A stretch of DNA of 64,000 nucleotides from Escherichia coli (GCF_024298765.1 NZ_CP101210.1), one strand, 5' to 3'; positions 53,502 through 54,897 are shown, counted from the stretch's first letter. The notes: generated from the sequence alone by a model not told the origin. A program made the numbers and translations.

Positions 53502-53536
53502 TTTTTCTCCAGAATCTCTGTGTAGTAAAAGTTAGG

Positions 53537-54730
53537 GAAGGTGCGAACAAGTTCCTGATATGAGATCATCATATTCATCCGGAGCGCATCCCAGAGGGAC
53601 ATCATGAGCCATCAACTCACCTTCGCCGATAGTGAATTCAGCACTAAGCGCCGTCAGACCCGAAAAGAGATTTTCCTCTCCCGCATGGAGCAGATTCTGC
53701 CATGGCAGAATATGACCGCTGTCATCGAGCCGTTTTATCCCAAGGCGGGCAATGGCCGACGGCCCTATCCGCTGGAGACCATGCTGCGTATTCACTGCAT
53801 GCAGCATTGGTACAACCTGAGCGACGGTGCCATGGAAGATGCCCTGTACGAAATCGCCTCCATGCGCCTGTTTGCCCGATTATCCCTGGATAGCGCCCTG
53901 CCGGATCGCACCACCATCATGAATTTCCGCCACCTGCTCGAGCAGCATCAACTGGCCCGTCAATTGTTCAAGACCATCAATCGCTGGCTGGCCGAAGCAG
54001 GCGTCATGATGACCCAAGGCACTTTGGTGGATGCCACCATCATTGAGGCACCCAGCTCTACCAAGAACAAAGAGCAGCAACGCGATCCGGAGATGCATCA
54101 GACCAAGAAAGGCAATCAGTGGCACTTTGGCATGAAGGCCCACATTGGTGTCGATGCCAAGAGTGGCCTGACCCACAGCCTGGTCACCACCGCGGCCAAC
54201 GAGCATGACCTCAATCAGCTGGGTAATCTGCTTCATGGAGAGGAGCAATTTGTCTCAGCCGATGCCGGCTACCAAGGAGCGCCACAGCGCGAGGAGCTGG
54301 CCGAGGTGGATGTGGACTGGCTGATCGCCGAGCGTCCCGGCAAGGTAAAAACCTTGAAGCAGCATCCGCGCAAGAACAAAACGGCCATCAACATCGAATA
54401 CATGAAAGCCAGCATCCGTGCCAAGGTAGAGCACCCGTTTCGCATCATCAAGCGGCAGTTCGGCTTCGTGAAAGCCAGATACAAGGGGCTGCTGAAAAAC
54501 GATAACCAACTGGCGATGTTATTCACCCTGGCCAACCTGTTTCGGGTGGACCAAATGATACGTCAGTGGGAGAGATCTCACTAAAAACTGGGGATAACGC
54601 CTTAAATGGCGAAGAAACGGTCTAAATAGGCTGATTCAAGGCATTTACGGGAGAAAAAATCGGCTCAAACATGAAGAAATGAAATGACTGAGTCAGCCGA
54701 GAAGAATTTCCCCGCTTATTCGCACCTTCC
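53537..54730 (+). mobile_element. IS5, complete copy with 4-bp target duplication TTAG
   Basis: Terminal inverted repeats GGAAGGTGCGAA (53537-53548 and 54719-54730 reverse-complemented); TTAG at 53533-53536 and 54731-54734; internal 326-aa transposase. Confidence 0.9.
53604..54584 (+). CDS. insH: IS5 transposase (InsH)
   Basis: 326-aa DDE transposase. Confidence 0.9.
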
Positions 54731-54897
54731 TTAGCAAAACCTGTGGAAGTGAATCATTATCAGGTTGGAATTGAATTGTATCCTGATGAAATTACATTAT
54801 CATTTTTATTCTTGAGTGGGCTCTTCCCATATAGAAATAATTATAATGGGCAGTGTTATTATTCATTGAAATATAATATTGCTGCCCTTGAAACATT

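Follow-up and report, generated by a model that had tools for sequence, protein, structure and literature searches.

In the Escherichia coli chromosome NZ_CP101210.1 (assembly GCF_024298765.1) the spacer between the divergent genes yegJ and yegI is interrupted by an insertion sequence. A central question is whether the element is there because of what it does to its neighbours, or because the spacer is a favoured target. We addressed this question using a stretch of 64,000 nucleotides from that chromosome, analysed as a whole and referred to here as the window (Table 1). The biochemistry of YegI has been described (bioRxiv 10.1101/819920); robust expression of yegI, pphC or yegJ is not known from any growth condition (10.1101/303594; 10.1101/819920; PMC13232886). 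The identities of the two genes, which a sequence-only reading of this DNA had given as yegJ and the Ser/Thr kinase gene yegI, agree with the RefSeq annotation of matching loci.

Table 1. Features of the yegJ–yegI region, in window coordinates.
Feature	Position	Strand	Remarks
yegJ	53040..53501	-	DUF2314 protein, 153 aa, intact
Target duplication, left copy	53532..53535		TTAG; overlap of the empty-site alignment also TTAG
Insertion sequence	53536..54730	+	complete, IS5 family, 1195 bp; ISKpn26-type 5' part, IS5-type 3' end
IRL	53536..53551	+	GGAAGGTGCGAACAAG, 16 bp; inverted-repeat search
Core transposase promoter PIS	53541..53569	+	GTGCGA-17-GATCAT, as defined for IS5 in PMC11894529
Transposase gene	53604..54584	+	ins5A homologue, 326 aa, co-directional with yegI
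Mosaic junction interval	54548..54580		ISKpn26-type/IS5-type, IS positions 1013-1045
IB region	54554..54730	+	last 177 bp, identical to K-12 IS5; IHF core and A-tracts
IHF core within IB	54634..54646		ATTCAAGGCATTT; pattern TCAA-N4-TT
IRR	54715..54730	-	GGAAGGTGCGAATAAG on the minus strand, near-perfect inverted copy of IRL
Target duplication, right copy	54731..54734		TTAG; overlap of the empty-site alignment also TTAG
Predicted yegJ promoter	54803..54775	-	ATGATA-17-TACAAT; sigma-70 consensus scan; same hexamers for K-12 in PMC3946193
Candidate yegI promoter	54812..54841	+	TTGAGT-18-AATAAT; untouched, conserved in K-12; consensus scan only
Counterpart of predicted K-12 yegI promoter	54853..54882	+	reads GTGTTA-18-TATTGC
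yegI	54898..56844	+	Hanks-type Ser/Thr kinase, 648 aa, intact

A first issue is the nature of the element. At 1195 bp it has the length of about 1.2 kb that is typical of the IS5 group, and both of its ends carry the group's 16-bp repeat of the form GGAAGGTGCGAA(C/T)AAG; matches to the terminal repeat number two in the 64-kb window, against 0.01 expected. The 4-bp duplication on either flank is of the YTAR type, TTAG being a listed IS5 target (PMC5493358), and the intact 326-aa ORF encodes an IS5-family DDE transposase, scoring 366.8 bits on the NCBIfam profile NF033581 ('IS5 family transposase'; score cut-off 140 bits) over profile positions 1-285 of 285. On every one of these counts the element is structurally a member of the IS5 family.

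An IS-free allele is available for comparison. E. coli LWY6 has a nearby IS150 insertion in common with the window, and its yegJ–yegI spacer is uninterrupted and holds a single TTAG. The LWY6 sequence aligns to window positions 37500-53535 and 54731-59182 with an overlap of exactly those four bases: the insertion was therefore clean and the target duplication, already proposed from the sequence alone, is genuine. That the element is an assembly artefact, or resembles an insertion sequence by chance, is vanishingly improbable given its full length, perfect ends, intact ORF and exact 4-bp duplication, the precision of the insertion relative to the empty allele, and the presence of the same junctions in two independent complete genomes. 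The element ends 167 bp from the yegI start codon (54898), precisely as the sequence-only reading had it, and 34 bp from the yegJ start codon (53499-53501, minus strand), where that reading had the location right and the distance, 35 bp, wrong. Short ORFs at the right end of the element and in the spacer (window 54743-54901, plus strand, and 7331-7582 of the locus L001), one of which is annotated as a 'hypothetical protein' in strain 23AR1101, are probably annotation artefacts made by the insertion.

While the element had rightly been called complete and flanked by TTAG, it is not a canonical IS5. Full-length near-identity to the K-12 type is lacking: compared with the K-12 reference element (IS5A/insH1, NC_000913.3 273955-275149) it is 94.65% identical, with 62 substitutions and two indels that all fall in positions 18-1012. 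The last difference is at position 1012, and the final 183 bp (positions 1013-1195), which include the IB region, are those of IS5A. Compared with the ISKpn26 copy of strain 23AR1101 the pattern is reversed, there being three differences in positions 1-1045 and 39 in the last 150 bp (positions 1046-1178). Being ISKpn26-like up to 1012/1045 and identical to IS5 from 1013 onward, the element is, on these alignments, a mosaic in which an ISKpn26-type body is joined to a 3' end of IS5 type. With IS5A it shares its length of 1195 bp, the 16-bp inverted repeats, the 4-bp YTAR duplication and a 326-aa DDE transposase, differing in its ISKpn26-type sequence over positions 18-1012; with the 23AR1101 ISKpn26 it shares inverted repeats, target and orientation, whereas the latter is 1196 bp long and its IHF core is altered from TCAA to TCGA. 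The swapped 3' segment corresponds approximately to the 'IB' region that mediates activation of glpFK, and the ISKpn26-type 3' end is without the IHF core.

This recombinant is not unique to the window but an established variant that circulates on plasmids. A copy identical at every position is present on the Salmonella plasmid NZ_MN651559.1, copies of 99.9% identity occur on many E. coli plasmids (those of O104:H4 among them), and matches of ≥99% to its 3' 395 bp occur in 321 E. coli records. RefSeq (PGAP) labels matching copies 'IS5-like element ISKpn26 family transposase'. More broadly, the mosaic is common on plasmids of E. coli, Salmonella and Edwardsiella.

Evidence that the spacer has been struck more than once came from a survey of 5426 complete E. 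coli genomes, 4728 of which match the reconstructed empty site. The yegJ-type spacer is present in full in about 1900 of the 4728. The insertion junctions (junction k-mers AAAGTTAGGGAAGGTGCGAA and TTCGCACCTTCCTTAGCAAAA) were found in two of the 5426 genomes – ES4 and 23AR1101 – and hence in two of the roughly 1900 that bear yegJ; the empty-site query was split into two places in two records only. No other insertion larger than about 800 bp was seen within ±300 bp of the site in the complete E. coli genomes, 800 bp being the approximate joining limit for alignment pieces, which sets the smallest insertion detectable. ES4 carries an IS5 that is 100% identical to K-12 IS5A, and 23AR1101 carries its 1196-bp ISKpn26. 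The identity between these two elements is 91.3%, and they lie in identical, K-12-like flanks; the flank allele of the window departs from theirs at 8 positions in the left 300 bp and 31 in the right 300 bp. Three different elements on two flank alleles are thus found at the same TTAG and in the same orientation. The differences between the elements extend almost from end to end, which makes conversion of one resident copy into another implausible, and the sequences point to at least three independent IS5-family insertions at the one tetranucleotide.

The exact left and right junction patterns were absent from metagenome contigs. Six junction hits among GTDB species-representative genomes, all in other bacteria, proved to be either sites unrelated to this one or different IS5-like elements. 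Three hits that appeared to extend 25-42 nt into the yegJ-side flank are insertions elsewhere in the genome (downstream of cusS; beside yqeK), their resemblance being attributable to chance similarity of AT-rich flanks. A search of the available literature found no report of IS5 at yegI/yegJ; what is new here is the recurrence of different IS5-family elements at a single yegJ–yegI TTAG.

The region around the spacer varies in other respects. In about 2800 of the 4728 matching genomes yegJ is absent and yegL-pphC-yegI form one operon. The yegJ 'cassette' (window 52967-54953 minus the insertion sequence) is a sharp replacement polymorphism: where O157:H7 and other strains without yegJ have 55 bp, the cassette has some 788 bp, running from ~9 nt before the end of pphC through yegJ and the divergent spacer to ~56 nt into yegI. 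Since the cassette includes the beginning of yegI, the N-terminus of YegI differs between the cassette and yegJ-less arrangements (MKTNIKVFTSTGEMTTLGLELGKGGEG versus MKPTLYTATGECVTPGRELGKGGEG). In the cassette arrangement yegI has neither translational coupling to pphC nor an obvious Shine-Dalgarno sequence; the yegI of ES4 (7665-9575 of the locus L002) is annotated at 636 aa, versus 648. Upstream, a complete IS150 (1443 bp, window 49801-51243, with CCC on both sides) lies in the ibs/sib toxin-antitoxin repeats just upstream of ibsA, between mdtA and yegL. Its junction recurs in 67 complete E. coli genomes, at 100% identity in at least eight, which marks it as an older, clonally inherited insertion, unlike the IS5-family one. 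On the other side of yegI, dgcE (yegE; a diguanylate cyclase of 1105 aa in LWY6) occupies window 59241-62556 on the minus strand in split frames, with residues 1-140 in frame -2, residues 139-1105 in frame -3 and the change of frame near 62137-62141. It is probably a frameshifted pseudogene; RefSeq also records a frameshift in the dgcE of ES4, another strain with an insertion at the yegJ–yegI site.

Why should one tetranucleotide be hit repeatedly? The spacer is 197 bp long and 69% A+T (31% GC), and the most AT-rich 100 bp within ±5 kb falls inside it. Five YTAR tetranucleotides lie within ±300 bp and only one, the TTAG, is in the spacer, so that any IS5 insertion into the spacer must land there. 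Stress-induced duplex destabilisation (SIDD) was computed with a script of our own, using a self-consistent mean-field approximation of Benham's model rather than WebSIDD, with copolymer energetics, sigma from -0.05 to -0.06 and a 5-kb fragment. In this approximation the probability of opening exceeds 0.1 in the spacer only, in both alleles. The open region runs from +38 to +198 relative to the TTAG, which sits at its edge and has an approximate G(x) of 3.05 kcal/mol against a median of 8.0, the lowest among 48 YTAR sites. By the same approximate treatment the TTAG of the window allele has a G(x) of 2.6-3.5 kcal/mol; that of the K-12 allele, at 5.7-6.3 kcal/mol (about 6), lies at the edge of the well.

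These are the properties of known IS5 hot spots, which at glpFK, bgl, flhDC, fucAO and nfsB fall in or beside SIDD regions (Humayun et al., PMC5493358): here, as far as an approximation other than WebSIDD can place it, the target tetranucleotide lies in or at the edge of a destabilised region, and three different elements have independently struck it. The closest parallels are the uspC-flhDC and phoU-bglG spacers (PMC5493358), which are likewise AT-rich, with repeated hits at a YTAR target inside or bordering a predicted SIDD well; they are also H-NS-bound, as is reported in vitro for the yegI/yegJ spacer of K-12. Those hot spots, however, were defined under laboratory selection with phenotypes, while the yegJ–yegI site is seen only as a rare natural polymorphism.

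On balance we think it probable that the insertion is a recent and rare hot-spot event that separates yegJ from its predicted promoter and probably lowers yegJ expression. The plasmid-associated ISKpn26/IS5 mosaic would recently have transposed into the single YTAR target of a spacer whose AT-richness and superhelical destabilisation, features of the sites that IS5 is reported to prefer, would make it a mutational hot spot; the same hot spot would have been hit at least three times, independently, by different IS5 relatives. The occurrences are confined to single genomes and no clade carries the insertion. With one YTAR in a destabilised spacer, the position of the insertion is explained without selection and, by the same token, carries no information about selection. 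The sole hint of selection is that all three insertions share one orientation, for which the chance is 0.25. Shared orientation is also what selection for activation of yegI would produce, and in this respect it counts against a pure hot spot. An asymmetry of the target as the cause of the shared orientation finds no support in the small ISfinder target sample, in which CTAA and TTAG occur three times each, with no bias (PMC5493358).

The consequence for yegJ depends upon the location of its promoter. In K-12 the yegI/yegJ spacer is listed as a divergent spacer that binds RpoD holoenzyme in vitro and contains an H-NS site, the H-NS binding being reported from Genomic SELEX (PMC3946193), and promoters were predicted there by Shimada et al. 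2014: ATGATA-17-TACAAT for yegJ and TTGTTA-18-TATAAC for yegI (PMC3946193). The first of these is the sole good sigma-70 match for yegJ in the window; its hexamers are conserved between the window and K-12 alleles, and it lies on the yegI side of the insertion sequence. The Shine-Dalgarno sequence (GGAG) and ATG of yegJ are kept within the 34 bp to the left of the element, and gene and ribosome-binding site are now 1199 bp further from the predicted promoter than before. The element physically parts yegJ from its predicted promoter and leaves yegI, together with the candidate promoters of that gene, undamaged. The sequence-only reading had the element 'almost certainly' displacing the yegJ promoter: the predicted promoter does lie beyond the element, but it is a prediction, and read-through across the element is possible.

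A consensus scan found no promoter-like minus-strand site reading out of the left end of the element, and a hybrid outward promoter at IRL that might serve yegJ thus finds no support. Candidates picked out by eye, pairing TTGTTC or TTCGCA with TACTAC or TACACA, have -10 hexamers without the conserved final T. Transcripts from the predicted yegJ promoter would have to cross the element antisense to the transposase gene, and crossing 1.2 kb of insertion sequence in this way would be expected to depress yegJ expression, which is most likely reduced; IS5 has been reported to contain terminator-like sequences (PMC11677980). These transcripts would also pass through the ins5CB operon, overexpression of which stimulates transposition about twofold (PMC11677980).

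Loss of yegJ expression might itself be favoured. According to this hypothesis YegJ is harmful in excess, and insertions that uncouple the gene from its promoter are selected. Strong overexpression of yegJ is indeed toxic, leading to envelope damage, destabilisation of rRNA and growth arrest (PMC13232886), and the many genomes that lack the gene (about 2800 of the 4728) accord with the idea. Moreover, yegJ is disrupted in nature by other insertion sequences: an IS1 lies within its coding sequence in LR-29-1 (NZ_AP027515.1 1723950-1725326) and EEC_W5 (NZ_CM130020.1 1982842-1984218), both of which carry the flank allele of the window (99.8% identity). But the toxicity was seen only on strong artificial overexpression, and in standard growth the gene is barely expressed anyway (PMC13232886). 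Selection for silencing further predicts hits at any point of the 462-bp gene and without regard to orientation, whereas all three IS5-family insertions share one site and one orientation. We regard this explanation as very doubtful.

The effect on yegI is a different matter, and here the known cases of activation by IS5 provide the standard of comparison. The candidate yegI promoters lie wholly to the right of the element. The -35 hexamer of the first begins 81 bp past the end of the element (82 positions), and the second, the counterpart of the promoter predicted in K-12, is a weaker match to consensus than the K-12 sequence. ins5A reads towards yegI, so that the 3' IB end is the nearer to that gene and the ins5A promoter the farther from it, the orientation reported for all IS5 activations of glpFK, fucAO and flhDC (PMC2753651). 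The IB end, with its IHF site and bend, would thereby be placed 81-122 bp upstream of the candidate yegI -35 hexamers, and the transposase gene would read towards these putative promoters.

An alternative to the hot-spot account is therefore that the insertions have been retained through adaptive activation of yegI, a silent kinase gene. Three routes, operating alone or in combination, could be envisaged: stimulation of the native promoter by an IB/IHF-mediated bend as at glpFK, disruption of H-NS silencing of the spacer as at bgl, flhDC and ade, and read-through that starts at the transposase promoter as at fucAO. That the locus is silent in the laboratory and that yegI mutations are recurrent in long-term evolution (10.1101/303594) suggests that changes in yegI expression could matter, and the activating orientation is found in three of three events.

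The parallel with glpFK (Zhang and Saier 2009, PMC2753651) is the most extensive. There the last 177 bp of IS5 – the IB region, comprising an IHF site and an A-tract bend – are necessary and sufficient for activation (PMC2753651). In the window the element stands upstream of an intact candidate promoter with IB proximal, and the 177-bp IB region, identical in sequence to that of IS5, retains its IHF core and A-tracts. The distance from element to promoter is of the same order, the yegI promoters being predictions: the end of the element is inferred to lie about 118 bp upstream of the predicted transcription start, versus 126.5 bp for glpFK. At glpFK activation, IHF dependence and phase dependence were measured; at yegI they are a possibility that the sequence suggests. 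Against a common glpFK-type mechanism stands the ISKpn26 copy of 23AR1101, in which TCAA of the IHF core is altered to TCGA, with 39 further differences over positions 1046-1178; without the core, the IB mechanism cannot be common to all three insertions.

At fucAO (Zhou et al. 2025, PMC11894529) the PIS promoter, essentially silent on its own, is fused with an upstream CRP site, and transcription reads through across the element (PMC11894529). As there, the transposase gene points the same way as its downstream neighbour, ins5A and yegI both being on the plus strand, and the PIS core has been preserved intact. From ins5A to yegI no terminator-like site is predicted. The fucAO fusion promoter, however, depends on a CRP site whose centre lies at -61.5, within the upstream flank, and no CRP-like site (TGTGA-N6-TCACA, with up to three mismatches) occurs in the 100 bp to the left of IRL (53436-53535). 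For want of such a site we reject a fucAO-type fusion promoter dependent on CRP.

The third route, relief from H-NS, is conceivable because the window spacer is 31% GC and H-NS binding was reported for the K-12 spacer by Genomic SELEX (PMC3946193). Induction of yegJ in EAEC 042 was considered as evidence of H-NS control and set aside: the data are from an hns2 mutant, and the genes are not up in the hns mutant.

Taken together, orientation, an IB region identical to that of IS5, and recurrence make it plausible that the element alters yegI expression, although a target-site hot spot would account for the recurrence equally well or better. Retention through adaptive activation is nonetheless unlikely: each occurrence is one genome with no clade behind it, and yegI in the window arrangement has no recognisable Shine-Dalgarno sequence. 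Bolder, and slightly less likely still, is the proposition that the TTAG is a natural, orientation-specific 'on switch' for YegI and the yegL-pphC-yegI triad in wild E. coli. Returning to the hot-spot insertion that we favour, yegI expression may be unchanged to moderately raised, and the insertion is probably close to neutral.

The insertion is an ordinary kind of IS polymorphism with one testable twist. Should yegI and yegJ expression prove to be unchanged, it would be one more neutral example. Were the on switch real, yegI would for the first time have a known condition or genotype of expression, in the alleles described here, and the 'directed' activations by IS5 seen in the laboratory would have a counterpart in wild strains, at the gene of a signalling kinase. 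Such alleles from nature, with the IS5-family element upstream of yegI in the activating orientation, are, moreover, ready genotypes for probing whether YegI can be switched on and with what effect. Finally, three IS5 relatives at one tetranucleotide provide an example from natural populations of hot-spot behaviour at AT-rich, destabilised DNA – behaviour that has so far been described mainly under laboratory selection.
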